This document shows positions 1-40,903 of a stretch of DNA of 64,000 bases, piece by piece (position 1 is the first letter of the stretch; every line of letters starts with the position of its first letter). The notes under the pieces are model-generated. The model saw only the letters and a program-made list of their open reading frames with translations, ran no database searches and was not told where the DNA came from. Source of the DNA: Candidatus Woesebacteria bacterium (lineage in GTDB: Bacteria; Patescibacteriota; Microgenomatia; UBA8517); the NCBI GenBank assembly GCA_020060565.1, contig JAGVAE010000003.1, positions 20,072 through 84,071 on the forward strand, read 5' to 3'. Position numbers and translations under genes: made by a program.

Positions 1-1800
1 TATTTTAAAGTAAAAGACTCCAGAAAAAAACTTGGTGAGCTTGCTTCTGAATTCTACGACAGCCCAAGTAAAAAACTAAAAATTATAGGAGTTACAGGAA
101 CTAAGGGTAAAACTACAACAGTCCATTTAATTTATCACATACTAACTTCACTTGGAAAAAAAGTCGGACTTGTTTCATCTATTGCAGCAAAGATTGGAGA
201 GCGCGAAGTTGATACTGGATTTCATGTCACAAGCCCTAATGTGGTTTCACTTCACAAATTTTTAAAAGAAATGGTGACGGCAGGTTGTGAATATGCAGTA
301 ATTGAAGTTAGTTCTCACGGGATAGATCAAAAAAGAATTGAGGGTGTTGAATTTGAAGTTGGGGTTTTAACCAATATTGCTCCAGAACACCTTGATTATC
401 ACAAAACCTTAAAAGAATACAAAAGAATAAAAATGTCCTTTATTGACTCATGTAGACAAAAAGTAATAGCTCCTACAGAAACAAATCTAAAAGTAATTTC
501 TGGATTTTTTAATAATCTAAATGCAGAAGCAGCAATAAAAACTGTAAAACTTTTAGGTTTTGATAAAGATAAAGCGCAAAATACACTTAAATCATTTGGA
601 CTTCCAGTTGGAAGACTTGAGGAAATAAAGAATGAACTGGGTATAAAGATAATTGTTGATTTTGCCCACACTCCCGATTCACTTTTTGCAGCCTTGACTC
701 ATTTAAGAAAGGAAACCAAAGGAAAATTATTTTCAGTTTTTGGCTGTGCAGGAGAAAGGGATCATAGAAAACGTCGAAAAATGGGCAAAATATCAAGTGA
801 TTTAGCAGATTTTTCAGTTTTTACTGCAGAGGATCCAAGAAGTGAAAAGTTAACAGATATTTTTAAACTTATGAAAAAAGATGCAAAAAATTACGTTTGC
901 GTACCCGAACGGGGAGAGGCAGTTGCATATGCACTAAGCAAAGCTACGAAGGGAGATACTGTAGCATTCTTTGGAAAAGGACATGAGACCAGTATGGCAT
1001 ATGATGGTTTTGAACACTTGTGGCGCGATCAAAAAGCTATCAGGAATTATTTGAAAAGAGATCTGACAATCTCAGCAATTATTCTTGCCGCAGGAAAAGG
1101 ATCGCGTATGCATTCAAATAAGCCCAAAGTAATTCATAAGATTTGTGGAAAACCTATGATCACATATACTTTGGAAAACCTAAGAGGAAGTGGGGTTGGA
1201 GAGATTATTGCAGTAGTTTCATTCAAGAAGAACTTAGTTATAAAGGTAATTGAGGGGGCAGTCAAATTTGCAGTTCAGAATAACCCCAAAGGTGGAACAG
1301 CGGATGCAGCAAAAACAGGTTATTCCCAAGTGTCAGCTAATATCAAAACATTAATTGTTATCAATGGGGACGATAGTGCTTTTTATACACCAGAAACTAT
1401 TAAGAAAATAATTGAAATTCATAGAGAAAGAGAAAGAAAACTAACATTCGTTTCATTAATGAAAGACAATCCCACAGGTTTAGGACGTGTAATACGTGGA
1501 GAAAATGGTTTAATTACTAAAATTGTTGAGGAAAAAGATGCGACTTCTGAAGAAAGAAAAACTAAAGAAGTAAATGATGGCCTTTATGTATTTGATAGAA
1601 AATGGTTTGATGGAAACATCCAAAAAGTCAAAAAAGGACCGCAAGGAGAGTACTACTTGGTGGACTTAATTAAACTTGCAATTGATCAAGGAGATAGAAT
1701 GGCAACATATACTCTTCCCAACGATCTTGAGTGGCAGGGAATTAATACTCCAGAAGAACTTGAAAAAGCTAAACAAAAAATGGAGGCGAGAATAAAATGA
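1..1800 (+). CDS. murE: UDP-N-acetylmuramoyl-tripeptide ligase MurE (5' partial) fused to a GlmU-like N-terminal sugar-1-phosphate uridyltransferase domain. MurE part is about 1-1060, nucleotidyltransferase part about 1069-1800.
   Basis: Frame 1 is open from base 1, so the gene starts upstream of the window. The Mur ligase P-loop GVTGTKGKTTT lies at about nt 85-115. The MurE C-terminal domain motifs DFAHTPDSL, FGCAGERD and GKGHE are present. The C-terminal ~245 aa (ISAIILAAGKGSRM, PTGLGRVIRGENG, IVEEKDATSEERK, GEYYLVDLIKLA) match the GlmU uridyltransferase domain closely. There is no acetyltransferase beta-helix. Confidence 0.8.
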   Translation, partial: YFKVKDSRKKLGELASEFYDSPSKKLKIIGVTGTKGKTTTVHLIYHILTSLGKKVGLVSSIAAKIGEREVDTGFHVTSPNVVSLHKFLKEMVTAGCEYAVIEVSSHGIDQKRIEGVEFEVGVLTNIAPEHLDYHKTLKEYKRIKMSFIDSCRQKVIAPTETNLKVISGFFNNLNAEAAIKTVKLLGFDKDKAQNTLKSFGLPVGRLEEIKNELGIKIIVDFAHTPDSLFAALTHLRKETKGKLFSVFGCAGERDHRKRRKMGKISSDLADFSVFTAEDPRSEKLTDIFKLMKKDAKNYVCVPERGEAVAYALSKATKGDTVAFFGKGHETSMAYDGFEHLWRDQKAIRNYLKRDLTISAIILAAGKGSRMHSNKPKVIHKICGKPMITYTLENLRGSGVGEIIAVVSFKKNLVIKVIEGAVKFAVQNNPKGGTADAAKTGYSQVSANIKTLIVINGDDSAFYTPETIKKIIEIHRERERKLTFVSLMKDNPTGLGRVIRGENGLITKIVEEKDATSEERKTKEVNDGLYVFDRKWFDGNIQKVKKGPQGEYYLVDLIKLAIDQGDRMATYTLPNDLEWQGINTPEELEKAKQKMEARIK

Positions 1801-3914
1801 AACTTCACTTTGTTGGTATTGGGGGGAGTGGAATATCTGGTGTTGCGAGTTTAGCTGAAAAATTTGGCTACAATGTAACTGGTTGCGATTTAGAAATGGG
1901 TGGACACAGTGTAGACCATATTAAAGATGTTGACTTAGTAATCGTTACACCTGCAGTTTTTTATCAAAATAACAACCACCCAGAAATATTGGAAGCTAAA
2001 AAACAAAAAAAACTCATGACATGGGAGGAATTTTTGGGAAAGGTTTTATTAAAAGATAAAAAACTAATTTGTATTGCTGGAACTCACGGTAAATCCACCA
2101 CAACTGCAATGGCGGCAAAACTATTAATAGACAACGGATTTGATCCAGTTGTTGTGGTTGGGGCAAAAGTATCCGAGTGGAATGGTAACTCCCGATACGG
2201 TGAAGGTGAATATGCAGTTGTTGAGGCCGATGAATTCAACAATAACTTTCTTTTCTATAATCCTGACATTGCAATTATTAATAACATTGAATTTGACCAT
2301 CCAGATTTTTTCAAAAATGAAAAAGAGGTAAGAGCTAGTTTTGATAAATTTATAAAGAATTTAAAAGGAGAAAAAATATTAATAACTGAGAAGGACAGTC
2401 AAAACAAAAAATTCAATCTGAAACTCTTAGGTGAACACAATCAAAAAAATGCCAATATGGTTTACATATTGGGAAAGAAATTAGGAATTAGGGATGAGGA
2501 TATAGTTAGGTCTCTGGAATATTTTAAAGGAATCAGTAGAAGATTAGAATTAATTGTAGATAGAGGTGGAATTGAAATTTATGATGATTATGCACATCAC
2601 CCAACTGCTATTAAAACAACTTTTGAAGGTTTAAGGCGTGAGTATCCTAAGGCAAAAATATTAGCAATAGTTGAGCCGCATGGATATAAAAGAACAAAAG
2701 CACTTTTAAAAAACTATAATGGGGTTTTTGATAATGTAGATAGAGTGATTGTTGGTCCTATTTTTCCAGCTCGTGATAAAGTAGATAATTCGATTACGCC
2801 AGAATTAGTAGCCAAGGCATCAGGTCATAAAAACGCAAGTGGATTTAGTAGTTTTGAAGACGTCATTGAAGATTGTAAATTGATAATTGGTAATTACAAT
2901 GTAGTTGTCGTCATGGGTGCTGGAAAAAGTAATTATTGGGCAAAAGAAATTGTAGGACTATTGCCAGTTAGCTTTTCTGACATTACAACCTTTAGGATTG
3001 GAGGAAAAATAAAGAAATGTTTTGAAGTTAAAAATGAATCAGAAATTAGAGGCGCTTTAGATTATGCAGACAAAAACAATTTTCCTATTTTTATACTTGG
3101 AGGAGGTAGTGATATATTGGCTTCAGACAAAAAGTTTAATGGTGTTGTCATTAAATATACATCAAGTAGTATTTTAGTTGGAGAAGATGGAATAGTAACT
3201 GCTGACGCAGGTGCTAGTTGGGATAGATTAGTAGAGGAAACGGTAAAAAGTGATCTTGCGGGTTTGGAATGTCTTTCAGGTATTCCTGGAACGGTTGGAG
3301 CATCTCCCATTCAAAACATAGGGGCTTACGGTCAAGAACTTGCAGATACATTTATCAAATTAGTGGCATACGATATTGAAAAAAGAAAATTTGTAACTTT
3401 TGATAAGAAAGCTTGCAATTTTGGTTATAGAGAAAGTATTTTTAAACAACCGCAGTATTGGCAAAAATTCATAATTACAAAAGTTACTTTTAAACTCTCA
3501 AGATACACAGATACAGATATAACCCTAGAGAATATTAGAGAAGAAATATTAAGAGTTAGATCAGAAAAACTTGAAGATCCACAAAACATCCCGAACGCAG
3601 GATCCTTTTTCAAAAATCCAGTTATTGATTTACAACAAAAAGAAAAGATTATTTCAAAGTATCCAGGAGTTGTTATTTACTCTTTTGAAAATAGGTATAA
3701 AGTATCTGCGGCCTGGTTAATAGAAAGTTGTGGCTGGAAAGGAAAGGAATATAAATCAGCATCAGTTTCGTCTAAGCACGCTCTAATACTTATAAATAAA
3801 AATGGTAAAGCGAAGGCTGAAGATGTTTTAGAACTTTCTGACAAAATAATTTCTGATGTATATAAAAAGTTTGGAATAAAATTGGAGAGAGAAGTACAGT
3901 TAATAAATTTTTAA
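1797..3914 (+). CDS. murC: Bifunctional MurC-MurB fusion: UDP-N-acetylmuramate--L-alanine ligase (about 1797-2960) plus UDP-N-acetylenolpyruvoylglucosamine reductase (about 2970-3914)
   Basis: The N-terminus VGIGGSGISGVA...AGTHGKSTTT is a MurC-type Mur ligase. The C-terminal ~310 aa (FRIGGKI...LGGGSDIL...GLECLSGIPGTVGASPIQNIGAYG) is a MurB FAD-binding/reductase domain. The ATGA start overlaps the murE stop. Confidence 0.8.
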   Translation: MKLHFVGIGGSGISGVASLAEKFGYNVTGCDLEMGGHSVDHIKDVDLVIVTPAVFYQNNNHPEILEAKKQKKLMTWEEFLGKVLLKDKKLICIAGTHGKSTTTAMAAKLLIDNGFDPVVVVGAKVSEWNGNSRYGEGEYAVVEADEFNNNFLFYNPDIAIINNIEFDHPDFFKNEKEVRASFDKFIKNLKGEKILITEKDSQNKKFNLKLLGEHNQKNANMVYILGKKLGIRDEDIVRSLEYFKGISRRLELIVDRGGIEIYDDYAHHPTAIKTTFEGLRREYPKAKILAIVEPHGYKRTKALLKNYNGVFDNVDRVIVGPIFPARDKVDNSITPELVAKASGHKNASGFSSFEDVIEDCKLIIGNYNVVVVMGAGKSNYWAKEIVGLLPVSFSDITTFRIGGKIKKCFEVKNESEIRGALDYADKNNFPIFILGGGSDILASDKKFNGVVIKYTSSSILVGEDGIVTADAGASWDRLVEETVKSDLAGLECLSGIPGTVGASPIQNIGAYGQELADTFIKLVAYDIEKRKFVTFDKKACNFGYRESIFKQPQYWQKFIITKVTFKLSRYTDTDITLENIREEILRVRSEKLEDPQNIPNAGSFFKNPVIDLQQKEKIISKYPGVVIYSFENRYKVSAAWLIESCGWKGKEYKSASVSSKHALILINKNGKAKAEDVLELSDKIISDVYKKFGIKLEREVQLINF

Positions 3915-5161: not shown

Positions 5162-5921
5162 ACCAATTGGAATCTTTGACTCTGGACTTGGAGGCCTCAC
5201 TGTAGTTAAAGAAATAATTAAGCTTTTACCTAATGAAGATATTATTTATTTGGGAGATACTGCTAGAGTTCCATACGGAACAAGAAGTAAAGAAACTGTT
5301 ACAAAGTTTTCTTTAGAAGATGCTAAGTTTCTCTTTTATAAAAAAGTTAAATGTATGGTCATGGCATGTAATACCGCAACAGCATTGGCAGAAAGTGAGT
5401 TAAGAAAACAATTTCATATCCCCATATTTGATGTGATATCCCCAGCAATAAAAGATGCTAAAAAAATATCAAAGACGAGAAAAATTGGAGTAATTGGGAC
5501 AAGTGCAACAATTCATAGTGGTGCATATAATGCTTCATTTTCAAAAGCTTGTCCACTCTTTGTACCATTTATAGAGGAAGGAGAAGTAAACAGTAAAGCT
5601 TTACGTATAGTAGCAAAAGAATACCTTTCGGAGTTTAAAAATAAAAAAATTGACACTCTGATAATGGGCTGTACTCATTATCCGATTATTAAAAATATAA
5701 TTAAAAGCATTTTGGGAACAAAAATTAATCTAGTTAACCCTGGAGAGTCCGTTGCAAAGGAAATGTCAGATTATTTGATTAAAAATAGTATGTTAAATAG
5801 TCAAAAAACAATTGGCAAAAGAAGCTACTTTGTAACAGATTACACAGAACATTTTATAAAAGTTGCTGAAATGTTTTTGGGGGATAGAATTAAAAACAAT
5901 ATAAAGAAAGTAATCCTATGA
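5151..5921 (+). CDS. murI: Glutamate racemase MurI
   Basis: The start was moved to the ATG at 5151 (MNNRPIGIFDSGLGGLTV), which overlaps the murD stop. Racemase motifs MACNTAT and GCTHYP are present. Confidence 0.8.
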   Translation: MNNRPIGIFDSGLGGLTVVKEIIKLLPNEDIIYLGDTARVPYGTRSKETVTKFSLEDAKFLFYKKVKCMVMACNTATALAESELRKQFHIPIFDVISPAIKDAKKISKTRKIGVIGTSATIHSGAYNASFSKACPLFVPFIEEGEVNSKALRIVAKEYLSEFKNKKIDTLIMGCTHYPIIKNIIKSILGTKINLVNPGESVAKEMSDYLIKNSMLNSQKTIGKRSYFVTDYTEHFIKVAEMFLGDRIKNNIKKVIL

Positions 5922-6958
5922 AAAATAAAATTAAAGTAGCCGTTCTTATGGGAGGAAAATCTCCAGAGCATGAGATATCTGTATTATCAGGTCAGCAAGT
6001 AGTTAAGAATCTTAATAAAAAGAAATATGAAATTTTGCCAGTCGTTATATCAAAAGATGGAACAAAGTGGCAGTTGACCAGTGTTGAAAGTATCCTGTCT
6101 TTGAAAAATCCAATCAATCTAAAAGGAACAAAAACTGAAATTGTTATACAAAATAAAAAAGAACTTACGCAAGAATCTTTATCCTCAGAAAAAGGAATAG
6201 ATGTTGTTTTTATAGCAATACATGGGCCTTTCGGAGAAGATGGAACAATTCAAGATATTCTTGAAGCTTCGGAAATTCCTTATACAGGGTCAGGAATATT
6301 AGCTTCTTCTTTAGGGATGGATAAAGCGATGTTTCGGAAAGTAATGGTGGCTGAAAAAATAGATATACCGAAATATGTGGTGGTTGATAAAAATGATAAG
6401 CAAAACTATATTTTTGAATCGTTAGGAAAACCTCCCTATTTTGTAAAGCCATCTGATCAAGGTTCTTCGGTTGGTTCTTCATTTGTTAAAACAAAAAAAG
6501 ATTTAGCGAGAGCTTTAAAGATAGCATTTAAATATAGTGATATGGTTTTGGTGGACGAATACATAAAAGGATTGGAGGTTACATGTGCTGTTATTGGAAA
6601 TGACAAGCCTATTGCCTTGCCTATTACTGAGATACATCCACTTAAAGGTGATTTTTTTGATTACGAGTCAAAATATAGCGGACACGGTTCTGAAGAAATA
6701 ACACCAGCTCGTGTTTCAATGTCATTAACTAAAAAAATTCAAAAGCTTTCAATTGATGTTTATAAAGCAATTGGTTGCAGGGGTTTTGGTAGAGTAGATT
6801 TTATTATTAAAAATAGAAAGTCCCCAGTTGTATTGGAGATTAATACAGTACCAGGTCTAACTTCAGAATCACTTTTGCCAAAGGCAGCAAAAGCTGCGGG
6901 TATAAATTATCCCGAACTTCTTGATACAATAATTAAATATGCAACAGAAAAAAACTAA
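5918..6958 (+). CDS. ddl: D-alanine--D-alanine ligase
   Basis: KIKVAVLMGGKSPEHEISVLSG N-terminus; ATP-grasp domain; placed within the mur cluster. Confidence 0.8.
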   Translation: MKNKIKVAVLMGGKSPEHEISVLSGQQVVKNLNKKKYEILPVVISKDGTKWQLTSVESILSLKNPINLKGTKTEIVIQNKKELTQESLSSEKGIDVVFIAIHGPFGEDGTIQDILEASEIPYTGSGILASSLGMDKAMFRKVMVAEKIDIPKYVVVDKNDKQNYIFESLGKPPYFVKPSDQGSSVGSSFVKTKKDLARALKIAFKYSDMVLVDEYIKGLEVTCAVIGNDKPIALPITEIHPLKGDFFDYESKYSGHGSEEITPARVSMSLTKKIQKLSIDVYKAIGCRGFGRVDFIIKNRKSPVVLEINTVPGLTSESLLPKAAKAAGINYPELLDTIIKYATEKN

Positions 6959-24291: not shown

Positions 24292-24365
24292 GGTTGCGTA
24301 GCTCAGCTGGTTAGAGCGTACGATTCACATTCGTAAGGTCCCTGGTTCGAGCCCAGGCGCGACCA
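24292..24365 (+). tRNA. tRNA-Val (anticodon CAC)
   Basis: Manual cloverleaf: acceptor GGTTGCG/CGCGACC, D-arm GCTC...GAGC, anticodon stem TACGA/TCGTA with loop TTCACAT, T-arm CCTGG-TTCGAGC-CCAGG, discriminator A. CCA is not encoded. Confidence 0.8.
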
Positions 24366-24370
24366 CAAAA

Positions 24371-34458: not shown

Positions 34459-35197
34459 AGTTCAACTTAAACTCCTTCTCAACTGAGTTTCCTGCTTGGT
34501 CAACAGATTTAATAGTAAATTTATTTTCACCACCATTAAGAGTTAAAGTGTATTGATATTTTCCAGATTCCTCAACAGAAACTATCCTGTCATTGATGGT
34601 GACACTAGCACCACTATCTGTAGTGCCCTGAATTGTCACTTGGCGCTGTTCAGAGCCATTAAAACTTGCTCCATCAGAAGGACTATCAATAATTAAGCTT
34701 GGAGGATCGTTGTCAAATACAACCTTCTTTTCAATAGTTTTCTGACTTACATTACCTGAAGGATCTTGAGTAATTGCAGAAAAATTATTATCTCCATCTT
34801 TTAATCCCAAATTTTGAAAAGTAAAATTACCATCTTTATCTACCAAGACTTCCTGTTCAGTCCCATTAAATGTTAGTTTAACGGTGGCTTCTGGTTCAGC
34901 AGTTCCTGTTAGCCCTATACTTTGCTTGTTTGTATAGTCGGGAACTATATCAAACTTAGGAGGAGCTGGAGGAGTTTTGTCATTTTGAGAACTTGTTGTT
35001 CCTCCCCTTAAGTCTGAGACAAATGAAGCTACCTTTCCAACAGCAGGAATACCAACAATAACTAAAACAGCAACGGCGGCAATAGAAAGAAGAATAAGAA
35101 GAACCGCATTTCTAAAGTTCCTTTTTTCTTCTACTGATTCTAATCTCGAGTATCTTAATCTCATATTATTTGAGCCGAGGGTGGGGATCGAACCCAC
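34448..35197 (-). CDS. Membrane-anchored protein with two Ig-like/bacterial Ig-like beta-sandwich domains
   Basis: N-terminal TM anchor (AVLLILLSIAAVAVLVIVGI), a Pro-rich linker, then two approximately 85-aa repeats rich in T/G/N/D (TVKLTFNGTEQEVLVDKDGNFTF; VTIQGTTDSGASVTINDRIVSV). Confidence 0.5.
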   Translation of the reverse strand: MGSIPTLGSNNMRLRYSRLESVEEKRNFRNAVLLILLSIAAVAVLVIVGIPAVGKVASFVSDLRGGTTSSQNDKTPPAPPKFDIVPDYTNKQSIGLTGTAEPEATVKLTFNGTEQEVLVDKDGNFTFQNLGLKDGDNNFSAITQDPSGNVSQKTIEKKVVFDNDPPSLIIDSPSDGASFNGSEQRQVTIQGTTDSGASVTINDRIVSVEESGKYQYTLTLNGGENKFTIKSVDQAGNSVEKEFKLNFSE

Positions 35198-35245
35198 TAC
35201 CTGCGGTTTACGATACCGCCGCTCTACCAGCTGAGCTACCTCGGC
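35173..35245 (-). tRNA. tRNA-Thr (anticodon CGT)
   Basis: Reverse complement GCCGAGGTAGCTCAGCTGGTAGAGCGGCGGTATCGTAAACCGCAGGTAGTGGGTTCGATCCCCACCCTCGGCT folds as a 73-nt cloverleaf. Anticodon stem GCGGT/ACCGC with loop ATCGTAA. Confidence 0.7.
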
Positions 35246-36411: not shown

Positions 36412-36485
36412 TGGAGCGGGATACGGGAGTTGAACCCGTTTCTCTACCTTGGGAAGGTAGCGTTAGGCCGCTTAACTAATCCCGC
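36412..36485 (-). tRNA. tRNA-Gly (anticodon CCC), CCA encoded
   Basis: Reverse complement GCGGGATTAGTTAAGCGGCCTAACGCTACCTTCCCAAGGTAGAGAAACGGGTTCAACTCCCGTATCCCGCTCCA. Anticodon stem CTACC/GGTAG with loop TTCCCAA. Confidence 0.75.
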
Positions 36486-36520: not shown

Positions 36521-37072
36521 CTACCTTAGTAACATCAAAACATTCCCAGGGTGAATTACATTTGGATTATCAAGTTTATTTGCATTTGCAATTTCAACCC
36601 ATTTATATCCATCCCCATAAGCTTTAACTGCTATATTCCAAAGACTATCCCCATGAACTACAGTATAGGAATCTGCTGTAATAGCTTGAGTATTGGACTC
36701 GATTGTTACAACTTCTTTTGTTGCAGTTGGTTGTTTTGCTGAAACTTCTGGAAGCAATATTTCCTGGCCTACTTCAAGACTTTCAGATTCAAGTTTGTTT
36801 GCAGACATTACATCTGTCCAGTTATAACCACTTCCATATACATCTTCAGAAATTGACCACAAACTTTCACCTTCGGAAACTGTATGTACTTTACCAATTT
36901 GTGATTGATTTGTTGTGGTTAATGCTTCAGGTGTAGTTTGAGATCTTTTGTCTTTAAAATAATTAACAACTAATATTCCAACTATAACTATAACAAGTGC
37001 TCCCAAAACCATACTAATGCTTTCTTCATTAAGCTTTAAATTTTTGAGGAATTTTTTTAAATCAAATTTCAA
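36521..37072 (-). CDS. Membrane-anchored protein with two LysM peptidoglycan-binding domains
   Basis: N-terminal TM segment, then two LysM repeats (HTVSEGESLWSISEDVYGSGYNW...; YTVVHGDSLWNIAVKAYGDGYKW...ANKLDNPNVIHPGNVLML). Confidence 0.8.
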   Translation of the reverse strand: MKFDLKKFLKNLKLNEESISMVLGALVIVIVGILVVNYFKDKRSQTTPEALTTTNQSQIGKVHTVSEGESLWSISEDVYGSGYNWTDVMSANKLESESLEVGQEILLPEVSAKQPTATKEVVTIESNTQAITADSYTVVHGDSLWNIAVKAYGDGYKWVEIANANKLDNPNVIHPGNVLMLLR

Positions 37073-37780: not shown

Positions 37781-37820
37781 TTTTGAAGATTCAAGCGAAT
37801 CTAAATATTGAAGCTTAATT

Positions 37821-38095
37821 GGGCGGGATCGACGAGATTCGGACTCGCAACCTCTTCCGTGCGAAAAAATCTTCTTGTTTCCAAAAAGCTCGGACTATCT
37901 CATCACCCGCAGGGTGAAATTATCACCACCTTACGGGGCCAGGTATATAGTCTCTACACATTTACACTTTCGTGCTTTAGCTCGGGATTGCCATTTTAAA
38001 GGTTTCCCCGAATTAGCCTGGTTTTACATCCCGCATTACTGCGGGACGCTGCCACAATTGACAGGGAAGCGCTCTAGCCATTGAGCTACGACCCC
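37821..38095 (-). tRNA. Intron-containing tRNA; the insert has P/Q/R/S-like group I intron elements. Exons assemble to a 73-nt tRNA with an Asp-like (GUC) anticodon loop CTGT|CAC. Exon 1 is 38061-38095 and exon 2 is about 37824-37861.
   Basis: 5' exon GGGGTCGTAGCTCAATGGCTAGAGCGCTTCCCTGT gives the acceptor, D-arm and the 5' half of the anticodon stem CTTCC. 3' exon CACGGAAGAGGTTGCGAGTCCGAATCTCGTCGATCCCG supplies GGAAG pairing with CTTCC, a T-arm GCGAG-TCCGAAT-CTCGT, acceptor CGATCCC pairing with GGGGTCG, and discriminator G. A 199-nt insert separates them. Confidence 0.6.
37862..38060 (-). ncRNA. Candidate group I intron within the tRNA anticodon loop
   Basis: 199 nt. The 5' exon ends in U and the intron ends in G, with P1 CUGU/GCAG. 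P-like AAUGCGGGAUG pairs with Q-like CAAUCCCGAG (P4). R-like GUAGAGACUAUAUACC pairs with S-like GAGAUAGUCC (P7, GACUAU/AUAGUC). There is no internal ORF. Confidence 0.6.
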
Positions 38096-38177
38096 AATAA
38101 CAAAGTATTTTAACATAGACTACCTTACTTACCAAGCCTCAACAAAACATTTCAAACATAGACTTTATCTTATAGTT

Positions 38178-39172: not shown

Positions 39173-40903
39173 TTGTCGTTATATAATGAATATATGTTGG
39201 GAAATCGCGCAACCAATCTTCAAATTGCAGAACTACTTCGCGATGTAGCAGCTTCATACCAACTTAAGGACGATAACAAGTATAAGTTTCAAATAATTGC
39301 ATATGAAAGAGCAGCAGACGCAGTAGAACACGCCACAAGTGAACTTAAAGACCTTTGGGATGATGGAAAACTGAAAGACGTCCCAGGAATTGGTCCAAGT
39401 ATAGCCCAGCATTTAGGTGAGATATTTCAAAACGGTAAATCTCAACATTTTGAAGATTTAATGAAAGGAATTCCCAAAGAAGCCTTCAAACTAATGGAAC
39501 TACCAGGTATTGGAATCAAAACCGCCCTTCGATTAATCACTCAGGGTAAACCTTCTGAAGTTGAGAAATTGTTAGACCAGGTTAAAGAAAGATCAAAAGT
39601 TGCCAAACGCCACCTTCTTCCATATGCTACACATGTAGCTTCCCAGATAATTGATTGGATGCTGACTAATCCTAAAATCAAGCGTGTAGACCCACTAGGA
39701 AGCTTAAGACGCCAGGCTGCAACAGTTGGGGATATTGACTTAGCCTGTGTAACTGATGACGGGGCAGACGCACTTAATCATTTTACTAAGTATCCAGAAA
39801 CGCAAAAGATAATAGAAAAAGGGGAGCACGCAGCCTCAATTCTTCTTCCAGGCAATGTCCAGGTAGATATGATGGTTCAGCCCGAAGAAACCTATGGATC
39901 ACTTCTTCAGCATTTTACAGGCAGTAAACACCACAATATTGCCATCAGGGAATATGCTCTTAAAAAAGGATTGAGTCTAAGTGAGTATGGGATCAAGCAG
40001 TTAAAAGGTAAAAGGCAAGAGGTAAAAGCTTTTAAAACAGAGAGAGAATTTTATAATTATCTTGGATTTGATTACATAGAGCCTGAGCTTCGCGAGGATA
40101 GTGATGAATTAGATTCAGCACTTAATCATACCTTACCAAATCTAGTTAACCTAAAGGATATTAAAGCGGATCTACAAATCCATTCAGATTTTAATATTGA
40201 AACAAGTCATGATTTAGGAGAAAGTTCCATGGAAGACCTTGTGAAAAAGGGAAGTGAACTTGGTTATGAGTATTTAGCATTTACTGAACATAATCCAAGT
40301 CAAAAAGGACACACAGATAATGATATTGTGGAAATACTCAAAAGAAAGCGTGAAAAAGTAGATCAACTTAATTACTCAATTCAAGAGAAGGGGATTGGTA
40401 GTGTAAAAAAAGTGTTCAATAGCCTTGAGATTGATATCAAACCCGATGGGAGTCTACCAGTTCCAGAAACTGGTCTTAATACTTTAGATTTTGTTTTGGT
40501 TTCACTTCATTCAAGTTTTGATTTAGAACGTAGCATTCAAACAAAAAGGGTTTTGACTGCCCTAGCCCACCCCAAAGCAAAAATTTTTGCCCATCCCACA
40601 GGTAGAAAGCTTAACGAGCGAGAAGGAGCAGAGCTAAATTGGCCTGAGATATTTGATTTTTGTTTAAAAAGGAATAAATGGATTGAAATTAATTGTGACC
40701 CAATGCGATTGGATCTTCCCGACACTCTAGTTCATGAAGCCGTGAAACTTGGTGTGAAATTAACACTAGGAACCGATGCACATCATAAAGATGGATTAAA
40801 CAACATGGTCTGGGGAGTATCAGTTGCTAGGCGCGGATGGTCAGAAAAGAAAGATATAGTTAATACTAGAACCTTGAAAGAATTTGAAGAAATGTTAATA
40901 TAA
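39173..40903 (+). CDS. polX: DNA polymerase X family protein with a C-terminal PHP phosphoesterase domain
   Basis: HhH motifs (LKDVPGIGPSIAQHL; LPGIGIKTALRL); Pol-beta nucleotidyltransferase core GSLRRQAATVGDIDLACV; C-terminal PHP domain (LQIHSDFNIETSHD...FTEHNP...GTDAHH). Confidence 0.8.
   Translation: MSLYNEYMLGNRATNLQIAELLRDVAASYQLKDDNKYKFQIIAYERAADAVEHATSELKDLWDDGKLKDVPGIGPSIAQHLGEIFQNGKSQHFEDLMKGIPKEAFKLMELPGIGIKTALRLITQGKPSEVEKLLDQVKERSKVAKRHLLPYATHVASQIIDWMLTNPKIKRVDPLGSLRRQAATVGDIDLACVTDDGADALNHFTKYPETQKIIEKGEHAASILLPGNVQVDMMVQPEETYGSLLQHFTGSKHHNIAIREYALKKGLSLSEYGIKQLKGKRQEVKAFKTEREFYNYLGFDYIEPELREDSDELDSALNHTLPNLVNLKDIKADLQIHSDFNIETSHDLGESSMEDLVKKGSELGYEYLAFTEHNPSQKGHTDNDIVEILKRKREKVDQLNYSIQEKGIGSVKKVFNSLEIDIKPDGSLPVPETGLNTLDFVLVSLHSSFDLERSIQTKRVLTALAHPKAKIFAHPTGRKLNEREGAELNWPEIFDFCLKRNKWIEINCDPMRLDLPDTLVHEAVKLGVKLTLGTDAHHKDGLNNMVWGVSVARRGWSEKKDIVNTRTLKEFEEMLI

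Follow-up and report, generated by a model that had tools for sequence, protein, structure and literature searches.

The minus strand of the window, by which we mean the whole 64-kb stretch of DNA analysed here, holds a tRNA-Asp(GUC) gene in two exons, separated by 199 nt that have the characters of a group I intron (Table 1). Read on that strand, the 5' exon (38095..38061, GGGGTCGTAGCTCAATGGCTAGAGCGCTTCCCTGT) comprises the 5' strand of the acceptor stem, the D arm, the 5' strand of the anticodon stem and the loop nucleotides C32, U33, G34 and U35, the last of which (38061) lies directly ahead of the 5' splice site. The 3' exon (37861..37824, CACGGAAG...CGATCCCG) resumes with C36, A37 and C38 and runs through the 3' strand of the anticodon stem, the variable loop, the T arm and the 3' strand of the acceptor stem to G73. 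Once joined, the exons formed a tRNA of 73 nt with a regular cloverleaf and a 7-nt anticodon loop, CUGUCAC, and ARAGORN called tRNA-Asp(GTC) after the 199 nt had been removed in silico, bearing out the interrupted cloverleaf of 73 nt that a first-pass annotation of this DNA had drawn. On the native sequence ARAGORN reported the split tRNA-Asp when its intron option was used, and with default settings it called no tRNA at the locus. The joined tRNA, as read from its sequence, carries G73, the anticodon G34 U35 C36, C38, G10 and the pair G2-C71, the bacterial Asp identity nucleotides known from studies of E. coli AspRS.

The CCA end is not encoded in register, CCCA (37823..37820) following directly on G73. 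This G73-CCCA end (window 37820-37824) is common to the related loci L015, L034, L021, L036 and L053, and a plain GCCA end is found in the relatives L009 and L030. A T ahead of G1 could pair with G73, and ARAGORN draws the acceptor stem with 8 bp and a C discriminator. Upstream of the gene, a sigma-70-like sequence is a possible promoter for the precursor, in a region where the number of such matches did not rise above the shuffled expectation.

Table 1. Features at and around the split tRNA-Asp gene, in window coordinates
Feature	Position	Strand	Description	Basis
LysM protein gene	36521-37072		flanks the tRNA gene	
PolX-PHP polymerase gene	39173-40903		flanks the tRNA gene	
ORF, 200 aa	37178-37780	-	no Pfam or PHROG match	
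ORF, 176 aa	38178-38708	+	no Pfam or PHROG match	
ORF, 126 aa	38759-39139	+	no Pfam or PHROG match	
Sigma-70-like promoter match	38107..38135	-	TTGGTA-17-TAAAAT (with TG); ends 12 nt upstream of tRNA nucleotide 1	
5' exon, tRNA-Asp(GUC)	38061..38095	-	35 nt	ARAGORN on spliced sequence
Group I intron, ORF-free	37862..38060	-	199 nt	RF00028, homology, covariation, MFE z-score
P1	38049..38064	-	exon CUGU (38064..38061) and intron CA with guide UGGCAG (38054..38049)	cmscan alignment
P2 hairpin	38029..38046	-	GUAA (GNRA-type) loop, A-U closing pair	covariation, MFE fold
P3	38021..38017 / 37943..37939	-	encloses P4, P5, P6 and P6a (span 37939..38021)	
P4	38011..38006 / 37987..37982	-	UCGGGG/UCCCGA	
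P5	38002..38001 / 37992..37991	-	covaries	
P6	37981..37980 / 37959..37958	-	invariant	
P6a	37975..37972 / 37967..37964	-	GAAA loop; covaries	
P7, pseudoknot helix	37952..37947 / 37898..37893	-	GACUAU/AUAGUC; encloses P8 (span 37893..37952)	
P8	37937..37934 / 37909..37906, plus extension	-	two of four pairs covary	
P9 hairpin	37871..37888	-	GAAA tetraloop	covariation, MFE fold
3' exon, tRNA-Asp	37824..37861	-	38 nt, ends at G73	sequence and ARAGORN
tRNA Thr-CGT, intron-less	35172-35245	-		ARAGORN
tRNA Gly-CCC, intron-less	36412-36485	-		ARAGORN
tRNA Val-CAC, intron-less	24292-24366	+		ARAGORN

Genomic setting

The window has a GC content of about 35% and encodes fused Mur ligase/MurB proteins, FtsA, IleRS, DnaE, GatA, PPDK and iPGM. 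A phage origin, suggested by the clustering of tRNA genes, was rejected: megablast and blastn searches against 50,697 phage records found nothing relevant, and the window holds mur, ftsA, ileS, dnaE, gatA and ppdK. The window is bacterial chromosome. Genes for a PolX-PHP polymerase, LemA, an M48 peptidase and a LysM protein flank the split tRNA-Asp, and the same four adjoin an intron-containing tRNA-Asp in 11 related loci, where their products share 60-80% amino-acid identity with those of the window. Several of these 11 records bear the names Woesebacteria, Microgenomates or Patescibacteria, and on these names and the conserved gene order we assign the window to Microgenomatia/Woesebacteria-like Patescibacteria; its fused-mur gene set of small-genome type and its GC content also point to that phylum. 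The conserved position of the intron-bearing gene argues for vertical inheritance.

The same exons, intron and PolX/LemA/M48/LysM order recur in TPA_asm records (L008, L009, L015 and others in L002-L056) titled "uncultured Gammaproteobacteria bacterium" or "Saccharibacteria". The proteins of these records are 60-80% identical in amino acids to those of the window and of the Woesebacteria records, and their taxonomic labels are probably wrong. The window's cell-wall genes (241-3914) are fused, with Mur ligase middle and C-terminal domains and a nucleotidyl transferase domain in one ORF and, in the next, MurB domains joined to a complete Mur ligase; such fusions fit a reduced genome. Three intron-less tRNA genes (Thr-CGT, Gly-CCC and Val-CAC) share a 14-kb stretch with the split gene.

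The genes next to the tRNA had been described as of unknown function, and the description stands, in that none of the three ORFs lying between tRNA-Asp and the LysM and PolX genes matched Pfam or PHROG. In relatives such as L015 and L009 the genes for the LysM protein and PolX directly abut the tRNA, and none of the related loci contained, by tblastn, anything corresponding to these ORFs, which may have been inserted beside the tRNA gene in this lineage. An exact-protein search with the 200-aa ORF likewise found no match.

Splice junction and fold of the intron

A search of Rfam, which the first-pass annotation had named as the means of checking the insert, aligned it with Intron_gpI (RF00028) from 38070 to 37871 on the minus strand. 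The alignment takes in all 253 positions of the model and scores 71.7 bits, where the gathering score is 50 (E = 3.2e-16), a match far beyond anything that chance could explain. The tail of 9 nt that follows P9, AUUUUUUCG, and with it the omega G in which the tail ends, lies outside the match.

Homologues were sought with a degenerate pattern derived from P1, P4 and P4' (CTGT-N7-GGCAG...AATTNNGGGAA...AATCCNNAGC) in one genome per GTDB species, and each locus was spliced in silico, those solutions being retained that had the anticodon at the junction. The pattern matched 56 loci, and introns at position 35/36 were assigned, besides that of the window, to tRNA-Asp(GUC) in 16, to tRNA-Asn(GUU) in 34 and to tRNA-Tyr(GUA) in two; the remaining four, at contig ends or with long introns, were not assigned to a host tRNA. 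The nearest relatives, L009, L015 and L034, were about 80% identical to the window, and their exons were near-identical, with one D-loop base differing. Two loci, L019 and L035, had been read as tRNA-His(GUG) with a 35/36 intron, a reading rejected when re-parsing revealed class II tRNA-Tyr(GUA) that the length filter had truncated. They are tRNA-Tyr(GUA) genes of 85 nt with group I introns of 240 nt at 35/36, and they illustrate how easily a 35/36 junction is mis-called.

The intron lies between anticodon nucleotides U35 and C36: of the eight junctions possible around the anticodon loop, all of which were compared, only 35/36 had both a U at position -1 and an omega G, here 37862, as the last nucleotide of the intron. 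A junction moved by +1 or +2 leaves the mature sequence unchanged, because the intron and the 3' exon both begin with CA, yet has neither U(-1) nor omega G. Moves of -1 to -4 yield Ala anticodons, and these junctions were rejected, as none combines U(-1) with omega G: the omega G is absent from all four and U(-1) is present only at -2. This last shift, which would put the junction at 33/34 and yield tRNA-Ala(CGC), is accepted by ARAGORN. Standard tools mis-call related genes in this manner as Ala(UGC), and an Ala identity with a 33/34 junction is reported for some orthologues run through ARAGORN and tFind (PMC13011429). It would, however, end the intron in U instead of G, the tRNA body has the Asp features G73 and C38, the U.G wobble of P1 falls at U35 in all 18 homologues, and an orthologue sequenced after splicing had lost its intron at 35/36 (PMC13011429), such that a junction elsewhere in the loop is scarcely credible. 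The 35/36 junction also agrees with two predictions of the earlier annotation, a 5' splice-site U paired to an internal guide GCAG and a terminal G: U35 (38061) faces G (38052) in a wobble within CUGU/GCAG, and the intron terminates in G, as do all 16 related Asp introns. The guide, 5'-GUGGCAG-3' (38055..38049), is complementary to the entire restored anticodon loop, with the U.G wobble at U35, and its first three nucleotides, GUG (38055..38053), are predicted to pair with CAC of the 3' exon as P10.

For the comparative test of the fold, 18 Asp introns (that of the window, the 16 scan loci and one published sequence, A2) were aligned and scored against a model of P1-P9 in which P7 was written as a pseudoknot. 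Paired cells made up 89.1% of the total, as against 33-50% when the 3' partners were slid by one to three columns, and 26 of the 49 pairs showed compensatory changes. None of 500 shuffles reached the observed score, although shuffle figures overstate significance because the aligned homologues are kin; a fairer yardstick is given by the slid controls, whose outcome is clear. Covariation was found in P2 (compensatory changes in all seven pairs), P3 (four of five), P5, P6a, P8 and P9 (six of seven, with 97% paired). In contrast, P1 (five of six pairs invariant in the 18 sequences), P4, P6 and P7 are essentially invariant and uninformative for covariation, a constancy that is expected of a catalytic core; P4, P6 and P7 are 98-100% paired, with UCGGGG/UCCCGA of P4 in 100% of cells and P7 in 98%, and for P7 covariation speaks neither for nor against. 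Comparison of the 18 sequences thus backs the conserved core expected of a group I intron, with helices P3-P8 and the pseudoknot of P3 and P7.

In the Rfam consensus the strands of P7 fall on the conserved segments R and S, and the R/S pairing GACUAU/AUAGUC put forward in the first-pass annotation is present as P7, which is expected to be the guanosine-binding helix. The P/Q pairing proposed in that annotation, CGGGAU/AUCCCG, is wrong: the two segments that it brings together are the 3' strands of P2 and P4. The true P4 is that of Table 1. For the P/Q proposal, the 18 homologues gave no support: it was 71% paired in them, a level matched by 81 of 500 shuffles and so no better than the control. 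Folding of the intron alone for minimum free energy yielded P2, P3, P4, P5, P6a, P8 and P9, with a z-score of -4.65. Loops L2 (GUAA), L6a (GAAA) and L9 (GAAA) are all of the GNRA type. There is no room in this intron for P7.1 or P7.2, because 1 nt separates P3' from P8.

The plus strand opposite the gene contains two ORFs, 37808-37999 and 37875-38084, which raise the question of whether small proteins are encoded there and the RNA signals are coincidental. Both ORFs exist mechanically, and in the window the antisense strand runs for 72 codons before a stop, but neither has a Pfam or PHROG match, and in several homologues the longest open stretch is 34-45 codons. Moreover, conservation tracks the RNA helices with their compensatory changes and not codons, and the covariance-model match stands at E = 3e-16. 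A protein-coding role is thus most improbable, and the earlier dismissal of both ORFs as artefacts appears reasonable, the open frame not being kept in relatives. The intron itself offers no space for a homing endonuclease gene.

Published relatives and other tRNA introns

Classical bacterial tRNA group I introns are those of cyanobacterial tRNA-Leu(UAA) at 34/35, tRNA-fMet at 33/34, tRNA-Arg(CCU) and Azoarcus tRNA-Ile(CAU) at 36/37. Like the intron of the window, they are of a self-splicing type of about 200-250 nt, lie in the anticodon loop, have a guide that reads that loop and bear peripheral helices capped by GNRA loops, and they share the general mechanism that the sequence of the window intron suggests for it. 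They differ from it in isoacceptor and in insertion position, and they belong to subgroup IC3, whereas the 35/36 introns of Patescibacteria were assigned to IA by subgroup covariance models (PMC13011429). The first-pass annotation had stated that group I tRNA introns are rare in bacteria and that those described are mostly in Leu-UAA, fMet, Ile and Arg, an argument now outdated: the settings known for group I introns in bacterial tRNAs were widened from 4 to 21 (Williams 2020, bioRxiv 10.1101/2020.01.27.920355), and group I introns at 35/36 of tRNA-Asp(GUC) and tRNA-Asn(GUU) in Patescibacteria were described by Nakagawa, Amikura, Omae and Suzuki (bioRxiv, July 2025, 10.1101/2025.07.03.662931; mSystems, January 2026, PMC13011429). 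Insertions at 35/36 were there found to be enriched in Patescibacteria, mostly without endonuclease genes, and to be the reason that tRNA-Asn and tRNA-Asp are missed by standard tools in some complete genomes of that group; the tRNA-Tyr(GUA) class was listed as well (PMC13011429). The arrangement of an intron at 35/36 of tRNA-Asp(GUC) is thus already published and experimentally validated, and the window is one more example.

Three tRNA-Asp(GUC) cases were listed by these authors (Table S3, PMC13011429), and the window precursor aligned with all three over its full length. Neither these three nor the 16 Asp loci of the scan included an exact match to the window intron, which is therefore a further species-level member distinct from the published three. 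Metagenome contigs searched for an exact 48-nt string of the intron also contained no match. The intron of Woesebacteria GW2011_GWF1_31_35 (L010, CP011214.1 / GCA_001029755.1) is about 76% identical to that of the window over the precursor. This tRNA-Asp precursor spliced itself precisely in vitro in a GTP-dependent manner, the ligated tRNA was sequenced, and a mutant with omega G changed to C stalled (PMC13011429). It shares with the window the tRNA-Asp host with near-identical exons, the 35/36 site, U(-1) and omega G, the P1 guide GGCAG, the sequences of P4, P6, P7 and J6/7, the compact ORF-free form (196 nt, compared with 199 nt) and PolX, LemA and M48 as neighbours. The two differ by compensatory changes in P2, P6a, P8 and P9, P8 being longer in the window, which also has the three extra ORFs between the tRNA and the conserved neighbours and the 3' end GCCCA; and whereas splicing of the GW2011_GWF1_31_35 intron was assayed in vitro, the window intron is known from sequence alone.

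The introns at 35/36 of tRNA-Asn(GUU) and tRNA-Tyr(GUA) in Patescibacteria (PMC13011429; Asn.4Ug of Williams 2020, tFind) have the insertion position and intron core of the window, to which they are up to 88% identical over the 5' 150 nt, but differ in host tRNA and in the pairing of the 3' exon. HNH endonuclease genes and an additional helix, P7.1, are found in some Asn introns at this site (PMC13011429), unlike the window intron, which is ORF-free with its single nucleotide between P3' and P8. A long intron also follows an Asn-like 5' exon in L018 (candidate division WOR-1, METP01000001.1, about 5915-6300 and downstream), where the interior "MPYYVYIIECSNKTLYTGI..." is similar to the beginning of a GIY-YIG endonuclease; the endonucleases listed for tRNA introns are HNH, PD-(D/E)XK and LAGLIDADG, GIY-YIG not being among them (PMC13011429).

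These relatives also bear on whether the locus is a decaying copy, with an inactive intron or a tRNA pseudogene, in a cell supplied by an intron-less tRNA-Asp elsewhere. The view of the genome spans 64 kb, within which ARAGORN found no second tRNA-Asp, and this leaves space for such a gene. Against this, the P1 guide, P3, P4, P6, P7, J6/7 and J8/7 are identical to those of the orthologue that splices in vitro or differ by compensated changes, the exons are near-identical to those of several other species (one D-loop base differing), which indicates purifying selection, and in a related complete genome the intron-containing gene was reported as the sole tRNA-Asp (PMC13011429). Decay is, by our estimate, very unlikely.

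Splicing and retention of the intron

The covariance match, the unique U(-1)/omega G junction, the cloverleaf with its Asp identity nucleotides, the covariation of the helices, and the homology and synteny with an intron that self-splices in vitro together make it highly probable that this is a functional tRNA-Asp(GUC) gene, split at U35/C36 by an ORF-free group I ribozyme of 199 nt that undergoes ordinary self-splicing. The central claim of the first-pass annotation, a compact group I intron in the anticodon loop of a tRNA-Asp(GUC), was in this way upheld by the covariance model, by splicing in silico, by comparative structure and by published orthologues.

Transcription of the gene would give a precursor about 280 nt long, in which the intron would fold into P1-P9. 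The guide 5'-GUGGCAG-3' would pair with exon CUGU and set U35 in its U.G wobble, and free guanosine at P7 would then attack the phosphate that follows U35. In the next step the G site would be taken by the terminal G (37862) while CAC of the 3' exon pairs with GUG in P10, and attack by the 3'-OH of U35 after omega G would ligate the exons and restore the anticodon loop CUGUCAC, leaving end processing and completion of CCA to produce the 73-nt tRNA body. These steps are those of the general group I mechanism. For the window sequence itself we infer the catalytic steps, P10 and the promoter, and the gene may be the only one for tRNA-Asp in the cell.

Why such an intron should persist is a further question. 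One view is that it splices as set out above but is kept since conditional splicing sets the supply of tRNA-Asp, a form of RNA-level regulation in a regulator-poor genome. The possibility was raised in PMC13011429, and many species whose genomes are very small do keep the intron where synteny is conserved, but an inability to delete the intron precisely from an essential gene present in a sole copy explains its retention equally well (PMC13011429), and we consider regulation an unlikely cause. It is doubtful, too, that ribozyme splicing of a sole tRNA-Asp gene serves as a conditional control of supply responding to, e.g., the status of guanosine nucleotides or Mg2+, in a lineage left with few of its protein regulators; the lineage-specific ORFs around the tRNA could be part of the context of such control.

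With ordinary self-splicing as the preferred reading, the window adds one lineage, and the scan 16 species-level examples of tRNA-Asp, to the published picture of ultra-small genomes that retain, in syntenic position, a ribozyme within a tRNA gene that is essential and probably single-copy, and the window intron raises no question beyond those of PMC13011429. There is a practical side to the finding: default tRNA finders miss the split tRNA-Asp, as ARAGORN did here, and a genome such as this would therefore be scored as being without tRNA-Asp, which distorts estimates of completeness for Patescibacteria.

Two loci of the scan, L005 (a MAG of Pseudomonadota) and L032 (a MAG of Thiotrichaceae), have tRNA-Asp(GUC) genes with 35/36 introns and exons of proteobacterial type (GGAGCGGTAGCTCAG...CCGCCA). 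Their introns are diverged, with longer P5 and P8. The intron class therefore occurs outside Patescibacteria too, and these cases bear on the question of horizontal transfer.
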